Of a DNA stretch of 40,000 bases, positions 3,417-39,478 are shown one piece after another. Both the position numbers and the translations under genes were made by a program. A model generated the notes under the pieces. That model made no database searches, was not told where the DNA came from, and saw only the letters and a program-made list of their open reading frames with translations. The stretch spans positions 430,893-470,892 of the forward strand of contig CAVXWH010000002.1 in NCBI GenBank assembly GCA_963765455.1, written 5' to 3'. The DNA is from an uncultured Actinomycetes bacterium. Lineage in GTDB: Bacteria; Actinomycetota; Thermoleophilia; Gaiellales; Gaiellaceae. Numbering within the stretch: the first letter of the stretch is position 1; each line of letters starts with the position of its first letter.

Positions 3417-4528
3417 CACCGCACAGCTTCCTCTAAAGATGCGAGATCGGCAAGAAGATAGAGCGAACCGGTAACGAGTAGGCACCCGTCGGGCGCGGCC
3501 AGATCGCGTCCCCGGGCGAGAGCTTGAGCCGGATCGGCGATCACCTCGACCAGCTCGAACAGGCCCTCGGCGCGCGCCGCCAGCTCGGCCGCGGGAAGCG
3601 CACGAGGGCTCGACGAGCTCGTCGCCACCAAGCTGCCGGCGAGCGGTGCGAGCGCCTCGAGCATCGAGCTCACGTCCTTGTCGGCGAGGATGGAGCAGAC
3701 GAGCGTCCAGCGAGCCTCGGGCAGGTGGCTGAGCAGCCACGCGACACCGCCCGGGTTGTGAGCGCCGTCCCAGAGCTCGCGCTCGCTGCGCCATTCGAGC
3801 CGGCCCGGGACCCTCGTCTCGATCGGGTCGGCCTCGACGGCTCGACCGAGCAGCAGCTCGACCGCCTTGCGCGGGATCTCCTCTTGAACGACCGTAGTGA
3901 CCGAGCCGGCGCCCGCCTCGCGCGCCGTCGACTCCCACTCCCCTTCGCCGAGCACGACCTTGGCGCCGGGGTTGACCACGGCCAGCTTCTCCCGCGCGAT
4001 CTGCTCGCGCGTCGAGCCGAGCCACTCGGTGTGCTCGAGCGCGACGTTCGTGAGCACGACCAGCTCGCTCGCGATCACATTGGTGGCGTCATAACGGCCG
4101 CCCAGACCCGCCTCGACCGCCGCTACTTCGACCCCTGCGGCGGCGAACTCCGCGAAGGCGGCCGCTGTGATCACCTCGAACTGGGTGGCCTGCAAGCTTT
4201 CCGCGGCCGGGCGCACTCGGGCCAGCGCGCGCTCGAGATCGGCCGTGATGCCGTTGACGCTGATCCGCTCGGCCCAGCCGCGCACGTGCGGCGAGATCGT
4301 GGCGCCGGCGCGCACGCCCTCGGCCGCGAGCAATGCCTCGATCCTCTTCGTCGCCGTCGTCTTGCCATTCGTGCCGACCACGTGAATCGAGCGAAAGGCG
4401 CGCTCCGGATGCTCGAGCAGGTCGAGCAGGGCCTGCATCCGCTCCAGGCCGAAACGCTCGGGCCAGGGGCTGATGGAGCTCAGCCAGGCCGTGCTCGAGC
4501 CCGAGGCCGGTTCAGTCGGAGAGGGCAT
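3416..4528 (-). CDS. folC: Folylpolyglutamate synthase / dihydrofolate synthase
   Basis: Contains the Mur-ligase-type P-loop HVVGTNGKTTATKRIEALL and matches FolC over its length. The start is uncertain. I chose ATG 4528, which overlaps the valS stop by 17 nt, because the track start at 4600 would overlap valS by 89 nt. Confidence 0.85.
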   Translation of the reverse strand: MPSPTEPASGSSTAWLSSISPWPERFGLERMQALLDLLEHPERAFRSIHVVGTNGKTTATKRIEALLAAEGVRAGATISPHVRGWAERISVNGITADLERALARVRPAAESLQATQFEVITAAAFAEFAAAGVEVAAVEAGLGGRYDATNVIASELVVLTNVALEHTEWLGSTREQIAREKLAVVNPGAKVVLGEGEWESTAREAGAGSVTTVVQEEIPRKAVELLLGRAVEADPIETRVPGRLEWRSERELWDGAHNPGGVAWLLSHLPEARWTLVCSILADKDVSSMLEALAPLAGSLVATSSSSPRALPAAELAARAEGLFELVEVIADPAQALARGRDLAAPDGCLLVTGSLYLLADLASLEEAVR

Positions 4529-6929
4529 CGAGCTCACGCCTGTAGCGGGCGAGCTTCTCACGCTCGGCCTCGACGACCTCGGCTCGCGCGCGCTCGACAA
4601 AGCTCGGATTGGAGAGCATCTTCTCGCAGCGGGCGATCTCCGAGCTCAGGCGTCCTGTCTCGGTCTCGATGCTGACCGCTTCGATCTTCATCCGCTCGGG
4701 CTTGACGACCGCCTGGAAGATGCGCTCCGCGTCGTCCGGGAGGCTCACGTGCAGGCCACTCCTGCGGAAGATTGCGGCGGCGTCCTGAACCCGCTCGAGC
4801 GCGTTCGCGTCGGCCGCGAAGCGAGTATCGGCCTCCGGCCAGGGCGAGACGATCAGGCGGGCCTTGCGCGTCGGCAGGTTCGACCAGATCTCCTCGGTCA
4901 CGTGCGGCATGACCGGGTGCAGCAGCGCGAGCAGCCGCTCGAGCGCAGCCAGCGCCGTCGAGCGGGCGTCCGCATCGCCGGCGTAGAGGCGCGGCTTGAT
5001 CGCCTCGGCATACCAGTCGCAGAACTCGTCGAAGGTCACGTGGTAGAGCCGGGTCACGACTCCGGCGTAGTCGAAGGCGGCGAAGCACTGCTCGATCTCG
5101 GCCCGCGCCGCTTCGAGCCGGGCCAGGATCCAGCGCTCGACGACCTCGCCGGGCCGCCCGTCGGGCTCCTCGTCGCCGACGTTGGCGAGAATCAGCCGGG
5201 AGACGTTCCAGAGCTTGTTGGCGAGCTTGCGCCCTTCTTCGACGGCACCGTAGGAGAAGCGCACGTCCTGGCTGGAGGACATCTTGAGCAGGCCGTAGCG
5301 AACCGCGTCGGCGCCGTGCTCGGCGATCACCTCGAGCGGGTCGATGCCGGTGCCGAGGCTCTTCGACATGCGCCGGCCGTCGGTGGCCAGCACGGTCGAG
5401 TGGATGACCACGTCGCGGAACGGCACCTCACCGAGCAACTCCAGCCCGGAGAAGATCATCCGGTTCTCCCAGAGGCGGATGATCTCACGCGCCGTCGTCT
5501 GCAGGTCGCCAGGGTAGAAGGCACGCAGATCGTCTGTCTCGTCGGGCCAGCCGAGCGTGGCGAACGGCCACAGCGCCGAGGAGAACCAGGTGTCGAGCAC
5601 GTCCTCGCTGCGGGTCAATACCGCCGAGCCGCACTCCGCGCAGTTGCCGGGCTCGCTCTCCTCGACCGTCAGGTGACCGTCGGAGCACTCCCAGATCGGA
5701 AGCTGGTGGCCCCACCAGAGCTGGCGTGAGATGCACCAGTCGGGCGCCTCCTCGAGCGACTCGATCGCGAAGCGGTGCTGGGACTCGGGATGAAAGCGAA
5801 CGCGCCCCTCGCGCAGCGCCTCGAGCGCCGGCTTCTTCAGCTCCTCCATCGAGCACCACCACTGCAGCGAGACACGAGGCTCGATGCGCGTCTCGCAGCG
5901 CTCGCAGAGGGCGACCGCATGACGGAAAGGCTCGCGGGAGACGAGCAGGTCGCGTTCCTGGCACCAGGCGAGAATGCATTCGGTCGCCTCGTCCTGGGTC
6001 AGCCCGGCGAGCTCCGGGATCTCGTCGTTCATCAGCCCGTCGGGGCCGATCACGCTCGGCTCACCCAGCCCGTGCGCGCGCCCGATCTCGAAGTCGACGG
6101 GATCGTGGGCGGGCGTGATCTTGAGCGCCCCGGTGCCGAACTCGGGATCGACGTGCTCGTCGGCGATCACCGGCACGCGCCGCTCGACGAGGGGCACGAT
6201 CACCTCCTGACCGACGAGATCGCTGTAGCGCTCGTCGTCCGGGTGCACCGCAAGCGCGACATCGGCCGGGATGGTGGCCGGGCGCACGGTGGCGATGGCG
6301 ACGTGGCCGGAGCCGTCGGCGAGCGGGTAGCGAATGGTGACGAGCTCGTCGTCCGCATCGATGTGCGCCAGCTCCAGGTCGGAGAGCGAGGTCTGATGGA
6401 AGGGGCACCAGTTGATGATGCGGTTGTCGCGATAGATCCAGCCCTTGCGGTAGAGATGGACGAAGAAGCGCAGCACCGCGCGGGTGTAGCCCTCGTCCAT
6501 GGTGAAGCGCTCGCGCCGGTAGTCGAGCGAGGCGCCGATGCGCCGGAACTGGGTCATGATCTTGCCGCCGTACTCGTGCAGCCACTCCCAGACACGCGCC
6601 TCGAAGGCTTCCCGCCCGAGCTCCTGGCGCGTCGTTCCCTCGGTCGCGAGGTACTTCTCGACCGCGTTCTGAGTCGAGATGCCGGCGTGGTCGTAGCCGG
6701 GCTGGAAGAGCACGTTGAAGCCCTGCATCCGCTTCATGCGCACGATCGAGTCGCCGAGTGCCAGCTGGAGCGCGTGGCCTATGTGCAGCTCACCGGTGAC
6801 GTTGGGCGGAGGATGGGCGTTGACGAAGCTCGGGCGCTTCGAATCGGGATCGGCGTTGTAGAGGCCCTCTTCTTCCCAGGCCTTCTGCCAGCGCTGCTCG
6901 ACGCCTGCGGGCTGGTAGAGCGGCTCCAT
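4512..6929 (-). CDS. valS: Valine--tRNA ligase
   Basis: 805 aa with the class I HIGH motif (PPPNVTGELHIGHA), the KMSKS motif (RRMSKSLG), an editing-domain region and a C-terminal coiled coil. Confidence 0.95.
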   Translation of the reverse strand: MEPLYQPAGVEQRWQKAWEEEGLYNADPDSKRPSFVNAHPPPNVTGELHIGHALQLALGDSIVRMKRMQGFNVLFQPGYDHAGISTQNAVEKYLATEGTTRQELGREAFEARVWEWLHEYGGKIMTQFRRIGASLDYRRERFTMDEGYTRAVLRFFVHLYRKGWIYRDNRIINWCPFHQTSLSDLELAHIDADDELVTIRYPLADGSGHVAIATVRPATIPADVALAVHPDDERYSDLVGQEVIVPLVERRVPVIADEHVDPEFGTGALKITPAHDPVDFEIGRAHGLGEPSVIGPDGLMNDEIPELAGLTQDEATECILAWCQERDLLVSREPFRHAVALCERCETRIEPRVSLQWWCSMEELKKPALEALREGRVRFHPESQHRFAIESLEEAPDWCISRQLWWGHQLPIWECSDGHLTVEESEPGNCAECGSAVLTRSEDVLDTWFSSALWPFATLGWPDETDDLRAFYPGDLQTTAREIIRLWENRMIFSGLELLGEVPFRDVVIHSTVLATDGRRMSKSLGTGIDPLEVIAEHGADAVRYGLLKMSSSQDVRFSYGAVEEGRKLANKLWNVSRLILANVGDEEPDGRPGEVVERWILARLEAARAEIEQCFAAFDYAGVVTRLYHVTFDEFCDWYAEAIKPRLYAGDADARSTALAALERLLALLHPVMPHVTEEIWSNLPTRKARLIVSPWPEADTRFAADANALERVQDAAAIFRRSGLHVSLPDDAERIFQAVVKPERMKIEAVSIETETGRLSSEIARCEKMLSNPSFVERARAEVVEAEREKLARYRRELDALSD

Positions 6930-33024: not shown

Positions 33025-34836
33025 CTACGGCGCCGGGGCGAGATACGGATCGAGCAGCAGGGCTGCGTAATCGGATTTCGTAAGCAGGTACCCGGGCAAG
33101 CTCGCCGTGTCTCCCTCCGCCGCCGTCTCGTTTTGAAGATCAGTCTGGGCTTGTGCGACCCAGGCGGCATCGGTGGTCGAGGCCGAAGTCCACCACTTCA
33201 CCTCCCCGGCTACAGATGTCCACCACTTCGTCTCCTGCGAGACCGATGTCCACCACTTCGTCTCCCAGGCCACGGATGTCCACCACTTCGTCTCCTGCGA
33301 GGCCGACGTCCACCACTTCGTCTCCCAGCTCGACGCATCCCAGTTCGGATTGCTCGCGATCGCGCTCTCCCACGAGGCAGCGTCGAAGTCGGGGATGGTG
33401 CTGACGTTCCAGTTGTAGACGAGGTAGTTCTCGAGCGCCGCGTTCGGGTTGGGCAGGGTGCCACCCAGCAGGCTCGCCGACCGTCCGGTGTTGAGCTCGC
33501 CCACGCCGAGCGAGCCCGGCGTCGCGGCGGGTGTCTGCTCCGCGCCCAGCATGAGCGCTCCCTTGACCTGATCGGGCGTCAACTCGGGATGAAGCGCCAA
33601 TAGTTGGGCGGCCGCCCCGGCTACCACGGGCGCCGCGAACGATGTGCCGGAGAGCTCCAGATATCCAGGGCTGAAGACGTTGTTCGGGAACTCGCCGAGC
33701 AGCGTCGAGCCGCTCGGCACGGCGCCGATCATGTAGCGGCCGGAGGCGCCGATATCGGGCTTGGCGAAACCGTCGAGCGTGTAGCCCCAGGTCGACCAAG
33801 GGGCGGCGATGTCGTCGGAGCGATTGAGCGTGCCCTTGTTGTCGAGCGCGCCGACCGTGATCACGAACGGGTCGTTACCGGGCGCGTAGCGCACCGAGGT
33901 CGGCTGGCCGTCGACACCGTAGTTGCCGGCCGCGGTCACGACGACTACGCCCGAGAGCCAGAGCTTCTCGACCGCCTTGTCGAGCGGATCGTTGACGAAG
34001 TGGCTCGGCGTCGTCGATTGCAGAGAGAAGTTGGCGACCTTGATGTTGTACTGCCAGTGGTGATCGACGATCCACTGGGCGGCGGCGATCACATCACTCG
34101 TCGTCGCCATGCCCTGGTCGTTGATCACGTCCAGCGAGATCAGCTTGCCGTTCGGCGCGGCACCGACGTGGCTGCTCCCGACGCCGGCGAGAATCGAGCT
34201 CACGAAGGTTCCGTGGCCGTCTCCGTCGCCCGGCGAATTGGGCGCCAGGGTGCACAGGTTCACCTGCGGGATGAGCAGACGGTTCGCCAGATCCGGAACG
34301 CTCGTATTGACGCCCGAGTCGACCACGGCGATGGTCGGCGTGGGCGGAGCCGGGTTCCACTGGTAAGTCCAGAGATGCGCGATCCCGCTCAGGTAAGGCC
34401 AGAGTTGGACGTTGGAGTAGTTGTCGAAGGCGGTCTGCTGGAGCGTGGAGTCGGGGCTCACGGTGAGTCCGGGCGTATTCGCCAGCGTCGACATTCGCGC
34501 CGCCGGCAGGGTCGCAGCGATCCCGCCGACGAGCGGAAGTTGTGTGCGCAGGGTGCCGGCCCCATAGCCGTCCTTGACGGCGCTCGCCTTGTTGAAGGCT
34601 GCGGTGGCGTCGGAGACGCCCTTGCTGCTCAGGATGATGATCTGTTCGCTCTGCGCGGGATTCGACTGCGCGGCGGCGAGCAGGGTCGGGTCGATGACGC
34701 TGTTCGCTGCGCCCGCACTACCTATCCAGACAAGTGCGGCGAGACAGACGGCGAGCAGGCTTGCCGTCTTCCGGAGGTACTTACACAGAAGCGGCACGAA
34801 AAAAGGTGTGCGTCCTTTATCGCCGTAGGTCGACAC
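33025..34836 (-). CDS. Secreted subtilisin-like (S8) serine peptidase with a C-terminal Trp-rich tandem repeat
   Basis: Catalytic Asp (IAVVDSGV), His (GHGTFVSS) and Ser (SGTSFAAPVVAGAAA). Signal peptide LLAVCLAALVWIGSAGA. The start is placed at GTG 34836, 7 nt after GAGGAG; the track start at 35001 is less likely. Confidence 0.88.
   Translation of the reverse strand: MSTYGDKGRTPFFVPLLCKYLRKTASLLAVCLAALVWIGSAGAANSVIDPTLLAAAQSNPAQSEQIIILSSKGVSDATAAFNKASAVKDGYGAGTLRTQLPLVGGIAATLPAARMSTLANTPGLTVSPDSTLQQTAFDNYSNVQLWPYLSGIAHLWTYQWNPAPPTPTIAVVDSGVNTSVPDLANRLLIPQVNLCTLAPNSPGDGDGHGTFVSSILAGVGSSHVGAAPNGKLISLDVINDQGMATTSDVIAAAQWIVDHHWQYNIKVANFSLQSTTPSHFVNDPLDKAVEKLWLSGVVVVTAAGNYGVDGQPTSVRYAPGNDPFVITVGALDNKGTLNRSDDIAAPWSTWGYTLDGFAKPDIGASGRYMIGAVPSGSTLLGEFPNNVFSPGYLELSGTSFAAPVVAGAAAQLLALHPELTPDQVKGALMLGAEQTPAATPGSLGVGELNTGRSASLLGGTLPNPNAALENYLVYNWNVSTIPDFDAASWESAIASNPNWDASSWETKWWTSASQETKWWTSVAWETKWWTSVSQETKWWTSVAGEVKWWTSASTTDAAWVAQAQTDLQNETAAEGDTASLPGYLLTKSDYAALLLDPYLAPAP
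33181..33330. repeat. Five in-frame 30-nt tandem repeats inside the S8 peptidase gene (encoding xxETKWWTSx)
   Basis: GTCCACCACTTC recurs at 33188, 33218, 33248, 33278 and 33308, exactly 30 nt apart. Two sub-types alternate, giving a 60-nt super-period. Confidence 0.9.
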
Positions 34837-35132
34837 GGTTGTGCTCCTCTCAATAACTCGATCGCAGCGAGGGCGGAGTCTGGGGGACTTCCACTCGCTA
34901 CGACTTCTGCCTCGAAGGTACACCCGTGAAAACGCTTCCATGCTCACCCAGTAGAGGGAGAGTCGCGCCCCGCGGGGGGAAATCGGAGCCCTATTGCTCA
35001 AATCGGGGGATTTAGGTGGCAGCTATCCGCGGTAGGAGATCATGTGACTGAGGCGTCAACCGGGGATACAGTGGCCGCAGACCTGCGCAGGCGCACTCGG
35101 CCAGTCGCTCGTAGAGCGAGTTCTGCGGTCGC

Positions 35133-35188
35133 GATCGGCCGCACGCGAGAGATTCGGCGGCAGCGAAGGTCGAGGAGCGGCAGTGAGC
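35133..35188 (+). repeat. Copy 1 of a 56-nt near-identical direct repeat
   Basis: GATCGGCCGCACGCGAGAGATTCGGCGGCAGCGAAGGTCGAGGAGCGGCAGTGAGC recurs at 35334-35389 with 2 differences, at a spacing of 201 nt. Confidence 0.85.
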
Positions 35189-35333
35189 CTGCCGGGCATA
35201 GGCCCCTCGGGCCTCGGAGCCAGGCATCCGCGACGCAGTTCAATCCGTGTGCGACCTGAACCGCGACGGCTCGACGGCGCTACCTCCCAGCGCGCTCGGC
35301 CCGTTCCTCCATAAGGGTAGAGCGTCCAATCTC

Positions 35334-35389
35334 GATCGGCCGCGCGCGAGAGATTCGGCGGCAGCGAAGGTCGAGGAGCGGCAGTAAGC
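35334..35389 (+). repeat. Copy 2 of the 56-nt direct repeat, just upstream of the tRNA-Arg(TCG)-like gene
   Basis: 54/56 identical to 35133-35188. Confidence 0.85.
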
Positions 35390-35415
35390 GCTCGCTCGGG
35401 CATACTCCCCCTCGG

Positions 35416-35488
35416 CGCCCCGTAGCTCAGTGCGATAGAGCGACGGACTTCGAATCCGTGTGCGGAGGTTCAATTCCTCCGGGGCCGT
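35416..35488 (+). tRNA. tRNA-Arg(TCG)-like gene; possibly a pseudogene
   Basis: Clean D arm (TA GCTC AGTGCGATA GAGC), anticodon arm (ACGGA CTTCGAA TCCGT, anticodon TCG) and T arm (GGAGG TTCAATT CCTCC). As I fold it, the acceptor stem (CGCCCCG / GGGGCCG) has two mismatches. No CCA is encoded. Confidence 0.6.
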
Positions 35489-35593
35489 GCGGCATTGTGG
35501 GGCTCGCCGGTGGTCGAATGTTCGGTTCCCCGTACTTACGAGGTGTCTCTCGCCGGCCATAATCGAGCCGACCATTCGGAAAAAGGAGAAAGC

Positions 35594-36250
35594 ATGGAAG
35601 CGTCAGCTCGCCCCGCGTACCCCGCTCGCCTGGAGGGTGAGCTTTCGCCCGAGCTCAGCCGCTGGTTGTGGCTCGTCAAATGGCTGCTCCTGATCCCGCA
35701 CTTCGTCGTGCTCCTGTTTCTCTGGATCGCCTTCGTCGTGCTGAGCGCCGTCGCCTTCTTCGCGATCCTCTTCACGGGGCGCTATCCGCGCGGGATCTTC
35801 GACTTCAACGTCGGCGTCCTGCGCTGGACCTGGCGAGTCGGCTTCTACGGCTATTCCGCTCTCGGAACCGATCGCTACCCGCCCTTCACGCTCAAGCCCG
35901 TCCCCGACTACCCGGCAACGCTCGAGATCGACTATCCGGAGCGCCTCTCGCGTGGGCTGGTGCTGGTCAAGTGGTGGCTGCTGGCCATTCCCCAGTACCT
36001 GATCATCGCCTTCTTCCAAGGCGGCGCCGGAATGCGCTTCTGCGGCGGTCTGATCGGCTTGCTCGTCTTGATCTCGGCCGTCGTCCTGCTCTTCCGTAAC
36101 CGCTATCCGCGCGAGATCTTCGACTTCGTGATGGGCATGAACCGCTGGGTCGTTCGCGTCGCCGCCTACGCCTCGCTGATGCGTGACGAGTATCCGCCCT
36201 TCCGCCTCGACAACGGCCCGAAAGAGCCCGCCAGTCCTGCAACTGCCTGA
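35594..36250 (+). CDS. DUF4389-like integral membrane protein
   Basis: Repeated pattern [18 protein letters not shown]...[20 protein letters not shown] and again [12 protein letters not shown]...[20 protein letters not shown]. The start is set at ATG 35594 behind AAGGAG, because the track start at 35495 would abut the tRNA. Confidence 0.75.
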
Positions 36251-36551
36251 TCGAGCCGGCCGCCGCGCCCGACATCGCGGGCGCGGCACACCAAACGCCG
36301 TCCCAACTCAACACGGACTCTGCTCACACCCGCGGTTAGTCCGCAACGCTTCTCGGAGCAGGCGAGTCAAAGCGCCGCAGGAGCAGCGACTCGCACGAGG
36401 GTCCGCCGACGAAAGCCTTCGCCCGCTCCGCGGGCGGACTTTCGTCTGGAGTTGCACCTAACCGGACAGCTTTACAACCTCCCGAAGCCGATCAGGAGAT
36501 TGCTCTACTCAGCCTGGCAGCCTGCATGTACGCGAGCGCCGGCGACAGTCA

Positions 36552-36573
36552 TGTAGTGGAGCCAGGCGGGTTC
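36552..36573 (-). pseudogene. Isolated 3'-terminal fragment of a tRNA-Ala/tmRNA-type gene (T-loop to discriminator only)
   Basis: The minus strand reads GTTCGAACCCGCCTGGCTCCA, which is T-loop, T-stem 3' strand, acceptor 3' strand TGGCTCC and discriminator A. The nucleotides 5' of it (TATTA) cannot form the T-stem, and no matching 5' half (GGAGCCA or GGGGCCA) is nearby. Confidence 0.55.
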
Positions 36574-36589
36574 GAACTAATACGCCTGC

Positions 36590-36740
36590 TCGCTTCCTCG
36601 GGGCGCCGCTGAGCGTGCTTCGCCGAAGGGGATAGTGTCGACTCACACAGACCCGTAGAGCGAAGTGCGCTCAGCGGCGTCAGGCGGATCCGGGAGGCCA
36701 GTCGCGCCTGGCCGTACGGATCCGCCGGCCGAGGAAGCGA
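36590..36740 (-). repeat. tRNA-trailing structured element, copy A (151 nt), immediately 3' of tRNA-Leu
   Basis: Closing helix TCGCTTCCTCGG/CCGAGGAAGCGA. Nested hairpin GGCGGATCCG..GGCCAG-GCGCGA-CTGGCC..CGGATCCGCC. Long hairpin CGCCGCTGAGCGCACTTCG...CGAAGCACGCTCAGCGGCG. Homologous to 38614-38763. Confidence 0.7.
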
Positions 36741-36743
36741 GAA

Positions 36744-36828
36744 TGCGGGCGAGAGGACTCGAACCTCCACAGGCACTTGGCCCAACGGGACCTAAACCCG
36801 TCGCGTCTACCAGTTCCGCCACGCCCGC
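36744..36828 (-). tRNA. tRNA-Leu (anticodon TAG)
   Basis: The reverse complement folds as GCGGGCG TG GCG GAACTGGTAGA CGC G ACGGG TTTAGGT CCCGT [16-nt variable arm] GGAGG TTCGAGT CCTCT CGCCCGC A. It is 85 nt, class II, with no encoded CCA. Confidence 0.92.
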
Positions 36829-37253
36829 TGGCTCTCGAAGGATAGACCGAGGCACTCGAGAGCGAGTGTCTGGCCTGTTCATTGCCTCTTGCCGAGCGAC
36901 TACGAGCGTGCTGCGACCGGCCCACCGTCACCTCTGGCTGCGGCGGAAGGGGGAGCAACCGCCGCAGCCAGAACGAGAAGGCACCGAACGCTAGTCCGCT
37001 CTCGGGACCGTGCAATCGCACTGGTCGAGATGCCGTCGCCCGGCGTAGAAGCCGCCGGGGAGCCGCCCGGATAGGCCGAGACGAGCTCGAGGGGAGTTGG
37101 CGGAACGACGGGATGGCGACGGCATTTCTACTTGGAGTAGAGCGATTAGGCCGGTGCATCTCAGACCATGCCCGATTATTGTCAAAACGCAATCACCCGC
37201 GCGAGTATTTCGCGCCGGGGACGGCTTCGGTTCGTCATTCCGAAGCGAGCTCG

Positions 37254-37290
37254 AGCCGCGGGTCGGGGGTTCGAATCCCTCCAGGCGCGC
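37254..37290 (+). pseudogene. Exact 37-nt duplicate of the 3' half of tRNA-Arg(TCT)
   Basis: AGCCGCGGGTCGGGGGTTCGAATCCCTCCAGGCGCGC is identical to 37407-37443. The sequence upstream of it lacks a D arm. Confidence 0.85.
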
Positions 37291-37370
37291 GGCTCAGGTA
37301 TTCAACTCTGTAGCTCACGCACGAACGCCGGCGAGGTGCCCGGGCAATAGACGCGTTACGCTTGAGGCAC

Positions 37371-37442
37371 GCGCCTGTAGCTCAGCGGAAGAGCGGCGGC
37401 CTTCTAAGCCGCGGGTCGGGGGTTCGAATCCCTCCAGGCGCG
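37371..37442 (+). tRNA. tRNA-Arg (anticodon TCT)
   Basis: Folds as GCGCCTG TA GCTC AGCGGAA GAGC G GCGGC CTTCTAA GCCGC GGGTC GGGGG TTCGAAT CCCTC CAGGCGC G. It is 72 nt with no encoded CCA. Confidence 0.92.
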
Positions 37443-37511
37443 CTTCTCACTTGCTCGGAGCGCTGCTGAGTGTGCTTCGCCGGAAGGGACGCTGCTTTAG
37501 CAGACGAGAGG

Positions 37512-37585
37512 GGTGACCGGTGGGATTCGAACCCACGACCACCGGGACCACAACCCGGGGCTCTACCAACTGAGCTACGGCCACC
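37512..37585 (-). tRNA. tRNA-His (anticodon GTG) with encoded G-1
   Basis: The reverse complement folds as G GTGGCCG TA GCTC AGTTGGTA GAGC C CCGGG TTGTGGT CCCGG TGGTC GTGGG TTCGAAT CCCAC CGGTCAC C. G-1 sits opposite C73, which is the tRNA-His hallmark. Confidence 0.92.
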
Positions 37586-37746
37586 GCGCGCAAAACAGTG
37601 TAGTACGCAACGCTCCACGGGCCGCCGATCGAGTCGAGCGGCGTACTATTCGAGGACGAGTTCGCCGTTCAGCGCGCGGCTCGAGCTCGATCCACAGGCC
37701 GACTCCTGGCGCAGAGGCCGGATTATCGGCGCCAATCCGACCGGTG

Positions 37747-38292
37747 CTAGCGGCGGACGCCGAAGTCGGCCGTCAAGATCGTCGCGGCCTGATCCTCGTA
37801 GGAGCCAGGCGCATCCGATGAGTAAACGGCAGAAAGGCCGATCTCGCGCCATTGCGAGTTGAGGAGGTTGGCGCGATGAGGCGGACTGTTCATCCACATC
37901 TTCACGGCTCTTTGAGCGGTCAGATTGGGTGACGCCCAGACGAGATTCTCCCCGACTGCCCAGTAGCGATGCCCACTGGACGAGTAGTAGAGCTTGATCC
38001 GCTGCCAGAACGCAGCTCCGTTGGCCGATTCGTGGGCGAAGTATCCATCCGTCGCCATCGAGAGCGAATGATTCGTCGCCGCCCTGGTGAGCGCGGAAGA
38101 CAGCGCGAGCGGCCTCAAGCCATGTTGCGCTCGAACACGATTCACTTCGCGCAAGACCTGTGAGCTCAAGGCCGAAACGGTGGCCACTCGGGCGCGAGAC
38201 GAAGCGGAGTTGGCTACCGGTACGGCGAGCAGGCAGAGGAGAACCGCGCCCAGGGCGCAGGCAGCTACTCGTCCCTTTCTCCGGACCACCAT
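37747..38292 (-). CDS. Secreted CAP/SCP/PR-1-like domain protein
   Basis: Signal peptide AACALGAVLLCLLAVPVANSA. CAP-domain pattern VNRVRAQHGLRPL...HSLSMATDGYFAHES...GENLVWA...AVKMWMNSPPHRANLLN..WREIG. Confidence 0.85.
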   Translation of the reverse strand: MVVRRKGRVAACALGAVLLCLLAVPVANSASSRARVATVSALSSQVLREVNRVRAQHGLRPLALSSALTRAATNHSLSMATDGYFAHESANGAAFWQRIKLYYSSSGHRYWAVGENLVWASPNLTAQRAVKMWMNSPPHRANLLNSQWREIGLSAVYSSDAPGSYEDQAATILTADFGVRR

Positions 38293-38541
38293 GAGGGCCA
38301 GATCGGCCCGGCCGCTGTTCTTTCTTATCCTCCAAAGGGAGGAATAGACAGCACAAAAAGGGTATTCCTACGGGGTCGGATCAGCCGCAGATCCACCATC
38401 CGACCCGGGAGTAGGAATGGGAATCGTGATTTCTGCCGGCAGCGTTTGGGCAGCATCGTGGCCGAGCCGGACGAAGCAACAAGCAGAGGCGGCGCCGAGC
38501 AACGGTCACGTTACGCGACGGGCGCTAGGCTACGCGTGCCC

Positions 38542-38612
38542 GCGGGTGTAGCTCAACGGTAGAGCTCCAGCCTTCCAAGCTGGCTATACGGGTTCGATTC
38601 CCGTCACCCGCT
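38542..38612 (+). tRNA. tRNA-Gly (anticodon TCC)
   Basis: Folds as GCGGGTG TA GCTC AACGGTA GAGC T CCAGC CTTCCAA GCTGG CTAT ACGGG TTCGATT CCCGT CACCCGC T. It is 71 nt with no encoded CCA. Confidence 0.92.
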
Positions 38613-38613
38613 T

Positions 38614-38763
38614 CTCGCGCTCTCGGCCGGCGGCCCCTCTGGCCGGGCGCGACCGGCCGCCGGGGCCGCCTGACGCCGCTGAGCGCACGATCCTCTACGA
38701 GGCCGTGGGGTGAACACTGTCCTCTCCGGGCTCGCACGCTCAGCGGTGCCCCGAGAGCGCGAG
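38614..38763 (+). repeat. tRNA-trailing structured element, copy B (150 nt), immediately 3' of tRNA-Gly
   Basis: Closing helix CTCGCGCTCTCGG/CCGAGAGCGCGAG. Nested hairpin GGCGGCCCC..GGCCGG-GCGCGA-CCGGCC..GGGGCCGCC. Long hairpin CGCCGCTGAGCGCAC...GCACGCTCAGCGGTG. The architecture matches copy A, with paired substitutions in the helices. Confidence 0.7.
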
Positions 38764-38887
38764 AGGCTATTCGGTGTAGTGCGAACTTCTTCGGCCTGCG
38801 GATCCGTGCGGCCGGCGCGACCGGCCTCCCGGACAGCTAACCGTGAGAGTGAGAGGCGATTCGGCGTTCTGCGGCCGTCGAGAACTG

Positions 38888-39478
38888 TCAGCCGAAGATC
38901 CGGAAAGGACTGACGACGCCGGCATCGCCCGCTTCTTCCCAGGCAACTTCGCCGCCCGGCTCGACCTCTCCGTGTAGTCGGCTCGCGAGCTTCTCGGCAT
39001 CTTCGTGGCTATCGGTGCCGACGATGAGGTAGCGCCAGCGTCGTACAGGCCGGTAGCCCTCGCCCTCGAGGCGCTCAGCCAGCTCTATCGCCTCGCGATG
39101 GGAGTTGCAGCCGACGCGGACTTCCCACGGCGCCCTGCCGTGCTCGACCTCCTCCTCCTCCCAGGTCTCGTCCTTCGGCTCGTCGTCCCAGCGCTCTTCT
39201 TTCTCGAGCCAGTGCTCGACGGGACTGATCTTGGCCTCGAGAGAGCGATGACGAAGCTCGGCTTCGATCACGGCGTGCGCGTGCTCGGCCTGGATCTTCG
39301 TCGAGGCGTAGACGAAGAGCTCGTTCCCGTCGCGCGAAACGGCCAGGCTGTTTCCGGCGAGCGCCTTCGCCAGCTCTTGCGCTTCGTCGCTCAGGCCGCC
39401 TCGAAGGCGCTCGAGGAAGTCGCCCTGGTCGCCCTCGCGCTGCAGCTCGATGTGAATTCGCCAGTCGTCGCTCGGCAT
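38888..39478 (-). CDS. Hypothetical acidic cytoplasmic protein
   Basis: 196 aa counted from MPSDDWRIHIELQREGD. The track start at 39523 adds a hydrophobic leader and is also possible. Codon usage matches the chromosome. No recognisable motif. Confidence 0.55.
   Translation of the reverse strand: MPSDDWRIHIELQREGDQGDFLERLRGGLSDEAQELAKALAGNSLAVSRDGNELFVYASTKIQAEHAHAVIEAELRHRSLEAKISPVEHWLEKEERWDDEPKDETWEEEEVEHGRAPWEVRVGCNSHREAIELAERLEGEGYRPVRRWRYLIVGTDSHEDAEKLASRLHGEVEPGGEVAWEEAGDAGVVSPFRIFG

Follow-up and report, generated by a model that had tools for sequence, protein, structure and literature searches.

The REP, BIME and REPIN sequences of proteobacteria are non-coding, GC-rich extragenic palindromes that lie in clusters at gene ends, carry compensatory changes in their stems and form modular mosaics; their known effects are stabilisation of upstream transcripts and transcription termination. 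The Correia (NEMIS) repeats of Neisseria are non-autonomous miniature inverted-repeat transposable elements (MITEs) of ~100-160 nt whose inverted repeats pair with each other once transcribed; as parts of transcripts from adjacent genes, they influence how these are terminated or processed. Here we describe an element that follows tRNA genes in a 40,000-nt stretch of DNA from an uncultured bacterium of the Gaiellaceae (assembly GCA_963765455.1, contig CAVXWH010000002.1, positions 430,893-470,892; this whole stretch is called the window). Two copies had been pointed out in an initial annotation made from the sequence without database searches: copy A on the minus strand (36590-36743), behind tRNA-Leu(tag), and copy B on the plus strand (38613-38765), behind tRNA-Gly(tcc). 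We conclude that the element represents a previously undescribed family of ~150-nt, non-coding, non-autonomous, interspersed sequences in Gaiellales/Thermoleophilia (Actinomycetota).

Like the REP-type sequences, the element is an extragenic palindromic repeat at gene ends, with pairing kept by compensatory change. It differs in that it forms a ~150-nt junction, with two unrelated hairpins inside a closing helix, instead of an inverted doublet of one REP; it is also locked in orientation and register (0-2 nt) to tRNA 3' ends, its host is actinobacterial, and no GTAG-type head or RAYT gene was seen in the sequence pieces sampled. Compared with MITEs of the Correia type, it lacks a target-site duplication, its terminal arms covary instead of being conserved as transposase sites, it strictly prefers tRNA ends, and no parent insertion sequence (IS) is known. 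By analogy, the element can be likened to an extragenic palindromic repeat, or to a MITE, that has a side effect at the RNA level.

Three further systems are close to it. Integrative elements that target tRNA genes, and the decayed derivatives of such elements (CIMEs), insert at tRNA 3' ends and undergo tandem accretion (PMC5704250). In common with these, insertion of our element leaves the tRNA intact, a subfamily at tRNA-Ala genes has a direct repeat of the tRNA end on its far side, and units without integrase accumulate in tandem, each after a tRNA-end repeat. By analogy, this Ala subfamily resembles an integrative unit in miniature that has no integrase and accretes in tandem. However, the unit is 0.17 kb instead of kilobases, most copies have no tRNA-end repeat, and one family occupies at least 13 tRNAs, not one tRNA whose 3' end is carried in attP. 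Furthermore, copy A joins an upstream tRNA-Leu to a downstream tRNA-Ala fragment, a non-cognate pairing not predicted by a standard crossover inside the tRNA. Mini-IS derivatives of the IS91 family have a target tetranucleotide (GTTC/CTTG) beside one end and a GTTC-type cleavage site at the other. IS91-family elements have subterminal palindromes, a GTTC site and no target-site duplication, are mobilised through single-stranded DNA intermediates, and are functional as a mini-IS of 89 + 82 bp (PMC13181058). The likeness lies in two different palindromes, the absence of target-site duplication, GTTC at an end, co-mobilised adjacent DNA and a size of ~170 bp. In our element, however, the GTTC (after the type-1 spacer, in intact tails) is the T-loop of a tRNA fragment, chimeric tRNAs are not seen, the two element ends pair with each other, and no HUH transposase was found in the pieces sampled. 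In the archaeon Methanopyrus kandleri, a palindromic motif ~10 bp downstream of roughly half of the tRNA genes was proposed as a 3'-end maturation signal (PMC5217627). It too is a lineage-specific palindrome at a fixed distance past many different tRNA genes, but it is a simple ~20-nt sequence, whereas ours is a 150-nt multi-hairpin unit with arrays and presence/absence polymorphism.

Results

The element lies directly behind tRNA genes

Pattern scans of species-representative genomes and metagenome contigs gave 125 loci, which are labelled here by L-numbers. The genome matches were mostly due to chance, and true members were recognised by blastn and by a covariance model, R1, built from 14 copies. 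A covariance-model scan of this kind had been suggested in the initial annotation; it led to a catalogue of 74 sense-strand copies in 61 arrays. Members were found only in metagenome-assembled genomes labelled Gaiellaceae, Thermoleophilia, Solirubrobacterales-like "Actinomycetes" or Actinomycetota, and in metagenome contigs of soil, peat and permafrost type. Two of the loci, L052 (Gaiellaceae) and L065 (Thermoleophilia), are syntenic with the tRNA cluster of the window, with ~80% nucleotide identity in the genes.

A same-strand tRNA end was found directly 5' of 38 of the 55 arrays whose upstream side could be read, and no tRNA-headed array was in the opposite orientation. The offset was between -3 and +3 in model coordinates, or 0-2 nt past the discriminator base, in 37 of these 38. 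Thirteen isoacceptors are trailed in this way, namely Ile(gat), Met(cat), Gly(tcc), Gly(ccc), His, Arg(tcg), Ala(ggc), Ala(cgc), Tyr, Ser(cga), Ser(gct), Asp and Leu(tag), and 38 of the 79 tRNAs in these loci are followed by the element. The specific link to tRNA 3' ends, which had been proposed from two copies, is thus borne out across the assessable arrays; copies were also checked for the reverse, a lack of any tie to tRNA ends, and this does not describe the family. The 17 arrays without a tRNA belong mostly to a more divergent lineage of higher GC content. In these copies a long open reading frame (ORF) on one or both sides has a stop codon that overlaps the closing arm, (C)CTGACGCC, and the plus-strand copy at 2060-2214 of L104 lies between convergent amidase and PEPCK genes.

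The one tRNA-headed array with a different offset (+34) is L090, in which the element is set off from the tRNA by a duplicate of the tRNA 3' end and by a run of N. At 3788-3900 of this locus, tRNA-Met is followed by 16 nt including NN, by a repeat of its last ~20 nt and then by the element, which in the orthologous L116 is directly 3' of the tRNA. The L090 arrangement is either a real duplication of the tRNA end or an assembly artefact. A different rearrangement was observed at 10664-11062 of L123. There a tRNA-Glu(ctc) gene breaks off in the anticodon loop (…CCCTCTCA) and its 5' half runs straight into a full element, after which come a duplicate of the upstream region and an intact tRNA-Glu; the fusion may result from recombination at the CTCTC/TTCTC microhomology.

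With Rfam 15 at gathering thresholds, the five tRNAs of the window matched and the element did not, and at E <= 10 over 36300-39000 the element drew merely sub-threshold noise of the miRNA type. Membership of any known RNA family, tRNA-like elements and ribozymes that self-cleave at their 5' end among them, was therefore rejected, consistent with the initial annotation, in which no family had been recognised. No description of the element was found in Rfam or in the literature searched. Pattern scans of viral contigs returned two chance matches, both inside a coiled-coil coding region, and blastn against plasmids and phages left the element unmatched. Since these collections held no genuine match, a viral, plasmid or phage origin was rejected.

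Base pairing is kept while the sequence changes

Folding of copies A and B gave a shared three-way junction with a closing helix of 12-13 bp, hairpin 1 with the loop GCGCGA, and a long hairpin 2 with a CA/CA internal loop. This is the architecture that had been described in the initial annotation, including a CA/CA mismatch that turns into tandem G-U pairs on the opposite strand. Copy A, read on the minus strand, begins with TTC and the 5' closing arm (36729-36740), followed by hairpin 1 (36683-36726), a junction UGA, hairpin 2 (36604-36679) and the 3' closing arm (36590-36601). The corresponding parts of copy B on the plus strand are the 5' arm (38614-38626), hairpin 1 (38629-38670), hairpin 2 (38674-38748) and the 3' arm (38751-38763). 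The two copies are ~80% identical across ~155 nt. Their minimum free energies are -103.6 (A) and -104.7 kcal/mol (B), with z = -10.0 and -6.4, and none of 200 shuffled sequences was as stable. When tRNA-Gly and copy B were folded together, the cloverleaf and the three-way junction adjoined without a linker.

Two alignments, A3 and A6, were fitted to the covariance model, which favours structure; they were 94.8% paired with 33 of 53 pairs changed on both sides (A3, 23 copies), and 94.0% paired with 37 of 53 pairs so changed (A6, 58 copies), and in neither case did any of 500 shuffles reach the observed values. In a control with the pairing partners slid by 1-3 columns, pairing fell to ~40% and double-changed pairs to 8-16. 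An independent MAFFT alignment of 14 sequences, analysed with RNAalifold, led to this fold again and contained 22 covarying pairs. The closing helix measures 12-15 bp in nearly all tRNA-adjacent copies, its sequence varies by paired changes (9 of 12 pairs double-changed), and inner copies of arrays have lost most of the 5' arm. Selection on pairing, argued in the initial annotation from copies A and B, is upheld by the larger set, in which a lack of covariation was looked for and covariation was found.

Hairpin 1 has been swapped for unrelated hairpins in L090, L093, L101, L105, L107, L115, L116 and L052 (3324-3474) and is absent from L015; hairpin 2 is absent from a partial copy in the window. 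Unpaired bases conserved at >=85% include the GCGCG of the hairpin 1 loop, the TG of the junction between the hairpins, the CA/CA loop (50 of 55 copies), residues of the hairpin 2 internal loops and the CC that precedes the 3' arm. Covariation alone does not show that RNA, as opposed to folded DNA, is the selected molecule.

The element has probably dispersed between tRNA genes

Orthologous sites are filled in some genomes and empty in others. Behind tRNA-Leu(tag), the window has copy A, while L052 and L065 have another hairpin directly 3' of the tRNA. The orthologue of that hairpin is found in the window at 36396-36450; its displacement indicates that a ~295-nt block (36445-36743) was added exactly behind the discriminator base. 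Behind tRNA-Arg(tcg), three tandem copies are present in L052 and none in L065 or in the window. In total, nine tandem arrays of 2-3 copies each were found.

Copies at orthologous tRNAs group together, with identities of 0.93-0.97 for Tyr and 0.92-0.93 for Gly(tcc). Copy B, for example, is 92-93% identical to the orthologous Gly(tcc) copies in L112, L117 and L096. Mean identity is 0.836 for copies at the same tRNA vs. 0.769 for unrelated pairs, and this clustering by orthologous tRNA points to long residence. Near-identity (92-95%) was also seen across tRNAs: copy A (Leu) is 0.95 identical to the Ala(ggc) copies of L054 and L122, and a His copy is 0.94 identical to an Asp copy. Judged from these sequence comparisons, the family behaves as dispersed and probably mobile DNA.

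A second family of tRNA trailers was observed in the same cluster. It consists of a long hairpin of the type TCCGCGAgAAGTCCGCCGGC...GCCGGCGAAGACTTcTCGCGG and ~190 nt of conserved sequence, and occurs at 36259-36450 of the window, at 5578-5775 and 6848-7041 of L065 and at ~6349-6556 of L052; L077 has a related hairpin (CGACGAAAGTCCGCC...). L065 has it behind tRNA-Leu(tag) and also behind tRNA-Arg(tcg), the two forming inverted duplicates, and in the window it has been pushed ~295 nt away from tRNA-Leu by the block that holds copy A. Within 35393-36850 of the window, tRNA-Leu with its trailer segment and tRNA-Arg(tcg) are each inverted with respect to L052 and L065, which are otherwise collinear, and the break points sit at repeat-bearing tRNA flanks.

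Flanking tRNA fragments and search for a mobilising enzyme

The copies fall into subfamilies, of which copy A is a type-1 and copy B a type-2 member. In type-1 copies, a spacer of 4-12 nt is followed by a ~22-nt tRNA 3' fragment that runs from GGTTCGA to the discriminator base. These fragments are significant, as 0-1 of 200 shuffles scored equally. In copy A the 11-nt spacer and the 22-nt fragment occupy 36557-36589 (minus strand), and the fragment itself (36557-36578, AGTTCGAACCCGCCTGGCTCCA) is the end of tRNA-Ala(ggc) from T-loop to discriminator, although the upstream gene is tRNA-Leu. It has 1 mismatch to the search pattern, with 0 such matches expected by chance, and the tRNA-Ala(ggc) 3' end is its best match (0 of 200 shuffles equal).

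The same module of spacer and fragment was found after type-1 copies in L054, L122, L127, L099, L124 and L018, the last of which has no tRNA upstream of the copy. The non-cognate Ala fragment after tRNA-Leu and the L018 module without a tRNA indicate that the fragment travels with the element. An att-like direct repeat of the tRNA's own 3' end was detected at the Ala(ggc/cgc) loci L054, L122, L099, L124 and L127 and at the Met locus L090, and was absent at other tRNAs. In the arrays of L099 and L124, each further copy trails a tRNA fragment just as the first copy trails the tRNA. On sequence grounds, the type-1 flanks fit a joining at the very end of the tRNA.

Insertion at the T-loop GTTC, either by an integrase crossover or in the IS91-like manner, was rejected for copy A. 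It predicts a chimeric tRNA or the 5' part of a tRNA-Ala; tRNA-Leu is intact and identical to its empty orthologues, and no tRNA-Ala 5' part is present in the window. Two other candidate fragments were also rejected. The type-2 tail (GAGCGATTCTCTTTG...) is plausible by eye as a decayed tRNA fragment and is not significant (p 0.1-0.56), and 36445-36485 as a decayed tRNA-Leu fragment gave p of about 0.7.

No short direct repeat that could be a target-site duplication was found in the flanks of the 74 copies. Target-site duplications and identical terminal inverted repeats had been named in the initial annotation as marks of a plain MITE; the copies have neither such duplications nor invariant terminal repeats. 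The ORFs that adjoin copies in the window, in L018 and in L104 encode DUF4389, CAP, subtilase, RCC1-repeat, GH16, amidase and PEPCK proteins, and some are without a Pfam match. None of the ORFs tested there is a transposase, integrase or recombinase, and an autonomous partner among these neighbours was rejected on that ground.

Copies and tRNA genes of the window

Five tRNA genes were called in the window by ARAGORN and Rfam, and none of them encodes CCA: tRNA-Arg(tcg) at 35415-35490 (plus), tRNA-Leu(tag) at 36744-36828 (minus; Rfam 54.4 bits), tRNA-Arg(tct) at 37371-37443 (plus), tRNA-His at 37510-37584 (minus) and tRNA-Gly(tcc) at 38542-38612 (plus). The tRNA calls and the sequence agree with the placement given in the initial annotation, with each copy 3' of its tRNA and in the orientation of that tRNA. 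Read on the minus strand from 36740, copy A starts after the three nucleotides TTC, and copy B starts 1-2 nt past tRNA-Gly. The discriminator A of tRNA-Leu is followed by TTCTCGC, and since TTC/TC belongs to the conserved 5' end (T)TCTCGC, the closing helix effectively starts 0-2 nt past the discriminator base. In a scan of the window with the covariance model and filters off, copies A and B scored 171.9 and 146.6 bits (E of about 1e-33 and 1e-28), and no credible match was found over the remaining ~35 kb. The rest of the ~295-nt block between tRNA-Leu and the ancestral trailer hairpin, 36445-36556 (minus), was delimited by synteny BLAST and alignment. The conserved type-2 tail of copy B (38766-38790, plus) has the consensus GAG(G)CGATTCTCTTTG, reads GGCTATTCGGTGTAG here and is relatively T-rich.

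Besides the tRNA-Ala(ggc) fragment, two degenerate copies were found that had not been reported before. In an internally deleted copy (37444-37509, minus; repeat match with 83% identity to 36586-36632), the beginning of the 5' arm is joined to the 3' half of hairpin 2, which the 3' arm follows. The 66 nt that separate the convergent tRNA-His and tRNA-Arg(tct) are exactly this copy, and because both of its ends abut tRNAs, four of the five window tRNAs touch a copy. The same spacer holds full copies in L052, L065, L102, L110 and L117. The second is a partial copy in tandem with copy B (~38780-38870, plus), made up of an arm remnant, hairpin 1, another arm remnant and a tail; it scored 25.7 bits (E = 0.001) at 38780-38855 and was also indicated by direct and inverted repeats.

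Other sequences around the cluster were observed in passing. At 37254-37296, 80 nt upstream of the intact gene, there is a partial repeat of tRNA-Arg(tct) that covers its 3' part, beginning on the anticodon-stem side and reaching the discriminator. The first 37 nt are 100% identical, and the repeat has weak tmRNA and mascRNA-like Rfam matches; it is probably a relic of integration or duplication. A 60-nt direct repeat (35129-35188 and 35330-35389, 95% identical, 201 nt apart) is located just upstream of tRNA-Arg(tcg). The unannotated block 36936-37214, which separates tRNA-Leu from tRNA-Arg(tct), is conserved at ~75% identity in L052, L065, L112 and L117, with a strong hairpin at 36932-36973, and may represent a small gene or a further RNA element. 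At least five successive units of a tandem repeat (33178-33327; period 30 nt, ~GATGTCCACCACTTCGTCTCC) sit within a minus-strand subtilase (Peptidase_S8) ORF at 33025-35001.

Discussion

The reading that we favour, and to which we give roughly an even chance, is that the family is a structure-constrained, non-autonomous element that serves as a 3'-end or terminator-like module trailing tRNAs and spreads between tRNA ends by a recombination step. The initial annotation had counted both a tRNA trailer or terminator RNA and a structured MITE/REP-like element aimed at tRNA 3' ends among its candidates, and the larger sample supports its interpretation. The element would be co-transcribed as a tRNA 3' trailer, and an endonucleolytic cleavage behind the discriminator would release the mature tRNA end; RNase Z is the enzyme expected for such a cut. 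The closing helix and the U-rich tract that follows it would act as a terminator-like, exonuclease-resistant 3'-end structure, a function that would hold copies in place for long periods. Spread to further tRNA genes would occur through recombination, with (T)TCTCGC being joined precisely to the 3' end of a tRNA, either site-specifically with a tRNA-end-like half site or by conversion between trailers, and the mobilising enzyme would be encoded elsewhere.

Several signals around the 3' end bear on this reading. A T-rich tract lies 3' of the closing helix, at ~+4 to +15, with a T fraction of 0.32-0.56 vs. a background of 0.164. Furthermore, where the element is missing, the tRNA is followed by a different GC-rich hairpin in its place (Leu(tag) in L052 and L065, Arg(tcg) in L065). 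Together with the constant orientation relative to transcription, the tract and these alternative hairpins fit a role at the RNA 3' end. Compared with intrinsic terminators, the position and the sense orientation at the end of a transcription unit fit, and the U-tract does not follow the stem immediately. The stop-codon position of copies away from tRNAs and the persistence of orthologous copies, grouped by tRNA (Tyr, Gly(tcc)), also speak for a 3'-end role. For the mobile side of this reading speak the filled and empty orthologous sites, the near-identity across tRNAs, the nine tandem arrays and the type-1 block of element, spacer and tRNA-Ala fragment.

A number of observations count against a module of this kind. 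The T-rich tract is imperfect and starts ~4 nt past the helix, the tail of copy A is not notably T-rich, and a simple terminator consensus scan did not call the elements. The conserved unpaired bases (GCGCG loop, CA/CA, junctions) and the tandem arrays are not needed by a plain terminator. The opposite strands are more stable, at -114 (A) and -109.7 kcal/mol (B), because CA/CA turns into tandem G-U there, and the conserved CA/CA loop could pair on the antisense strand only. Helix wobble pairs in 55 distinct sequences (58 copies) comprise 98 G-U, of which 46 come from one conserved U-G, vs. 78 A-C; the numbers for 23 copies are 34 and 32. This near balance, taken with the antisense pairing of CA/CA, means that the sense-strand signature usual for structured RNAs is missing. 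An attempt to read the strand of action from wobble pairs led to no conclusion, as the conserved U-G favours sense and CA/CA favours antisense. No target-site duplication, autonomous copy or recombinase was found in the sequence pieces examined, and the mechanism of mobility is one that we infer. Finally, the copies were ascertained through the exact hairpin 2 core in sequence pieces of at most ~13 kb, mostly <=8 kb, and their counts are not per genome.

The principal rival is purely selfish DNA, a MITE/REP-like or miniature integrative element for which the tRNA end is a mere target and any effect on the transcript incidental; we regard this as possible, though on the doubtful side. Its hairpins would be maintained because a recombinase or HUH-type enzyme recognises folded single-stranded DNA, as exemplified by REP/RAYT, IS200/IS605, IS91 ends, integron attC and the attP of CTX phage. 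The absence of strand bias in the wobble pairs is in keeping with a DNA substrate, for which the CA/CA loop and the other conserved unpaired bases could be strand or recognition marks. Tandem arrays, internally deleted copies, copies minus one hairpin, filled and empty orthologous sites and the 92-95% identity between copies at different tRNAs are likewise to be expected of such DNA, as are the type-1 module of spacer and fragment from GGTTCGA, the array copies that follow such fragments in L099 and L124, and the att-like repeats at Ala loci. Known parallels are CIMEs and accretion at tRNA 3' ends (PMC5704250) and the ends of IS91-family elements (PMC13181058). However, no recombinase or transposase lies near any copy examined, and the phage, plasmid and viral collections hold no autonomous relative. 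Direct repeats of the tRNA's own end are limited to the Ala subfamily plus the Met copy of L090, type-2 tails are not significantly tRNA-like, and the intact tRNA-Leu without a tRNA-Ala 5' part runs counter to the chimera predicted by T-loop insertion. The persistence of orthologous copies at about the divergence of neighbouring genes, with pairing kept, is also unexpected for an immobile selfish relic.

A more far-reaching version, which we think rather unlikely, would make the family a new kind of structure-guided mobile element that recognises any tRNA gene end and joins exactly behind the discriminator base. Recognition would rely on the geometry and sequence shared by T-arms and acceptor ends, and the three-way junction would be the folded single-stranded substrate. 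The tRNA-3'-end mimic at the far end would be half of a recombination site, so that each insertion would make the next target, which would explain the arrays. In a bolder variant, the unit would be copied from the trailer RNA released by RNase Z.

We consider it improbable that the product is a stable non-coding RNA that acts in its own right, cut from the pre-tRNA behind the discriminator and protected by its paired ends. By analogy with spacer-derived small RNAs linked to tRNAs, its conserved loops would bind a protein or another RNA. Such an RNA would account for a start exactly at the tRNA processing site, for the strong covariation, for the conservation at >=85% of unpaired residues in the hairpin 1 loop, junctions and hairpin 2 internal loops, and for long-term retention at orthologous tRNAs. 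Yet hairpin 1, with its conserved loop, is dispensable or replaceable in many copies, the sense strand has no G-U excess, and an RNA gene with a single function would hardly be expected to have truncated copies, tandem arrays and many diverged copies at one locus. Selection on an antisense RNA, opposite to the tRNA, is very improbable: the complementary strand is about 5-10 kcal/mol more stable and pairs CA/CA as tandem G-U, but no promoter-like site was found in the region, the transcript would run into the tRNA gene, the conserved U-G (46 of 55 copies) exists on the sense strand only, and co-transcription is the simpler explanation for an orientation that is locked to that of the upstream gene.

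In practice, copies of the element can be misread as novel RNA genes; they are also probable assembly break points and likely substrates for local rearrangements in this tRNA cluster. The family adds a new covariation-supported structured repeat from Gaiellales/Thermoleophilia, a poorly studied and abundant soil lineage. Its lock in register and orientation to the 3' ends of at least 13 CCA-less tRNAs offers a handle on the termination and trimming of tRNA transcripts in those high-GC actinobacteria in which canonical terminators are missing. Active mobility, if real, would reveal the way in which a non-autonomous unit of 150 nt locates the ends of tRNA genes, and structure-guided recognition of those ends, in either variant, would if true be a new targeting logic for bacterial mobile DNA.

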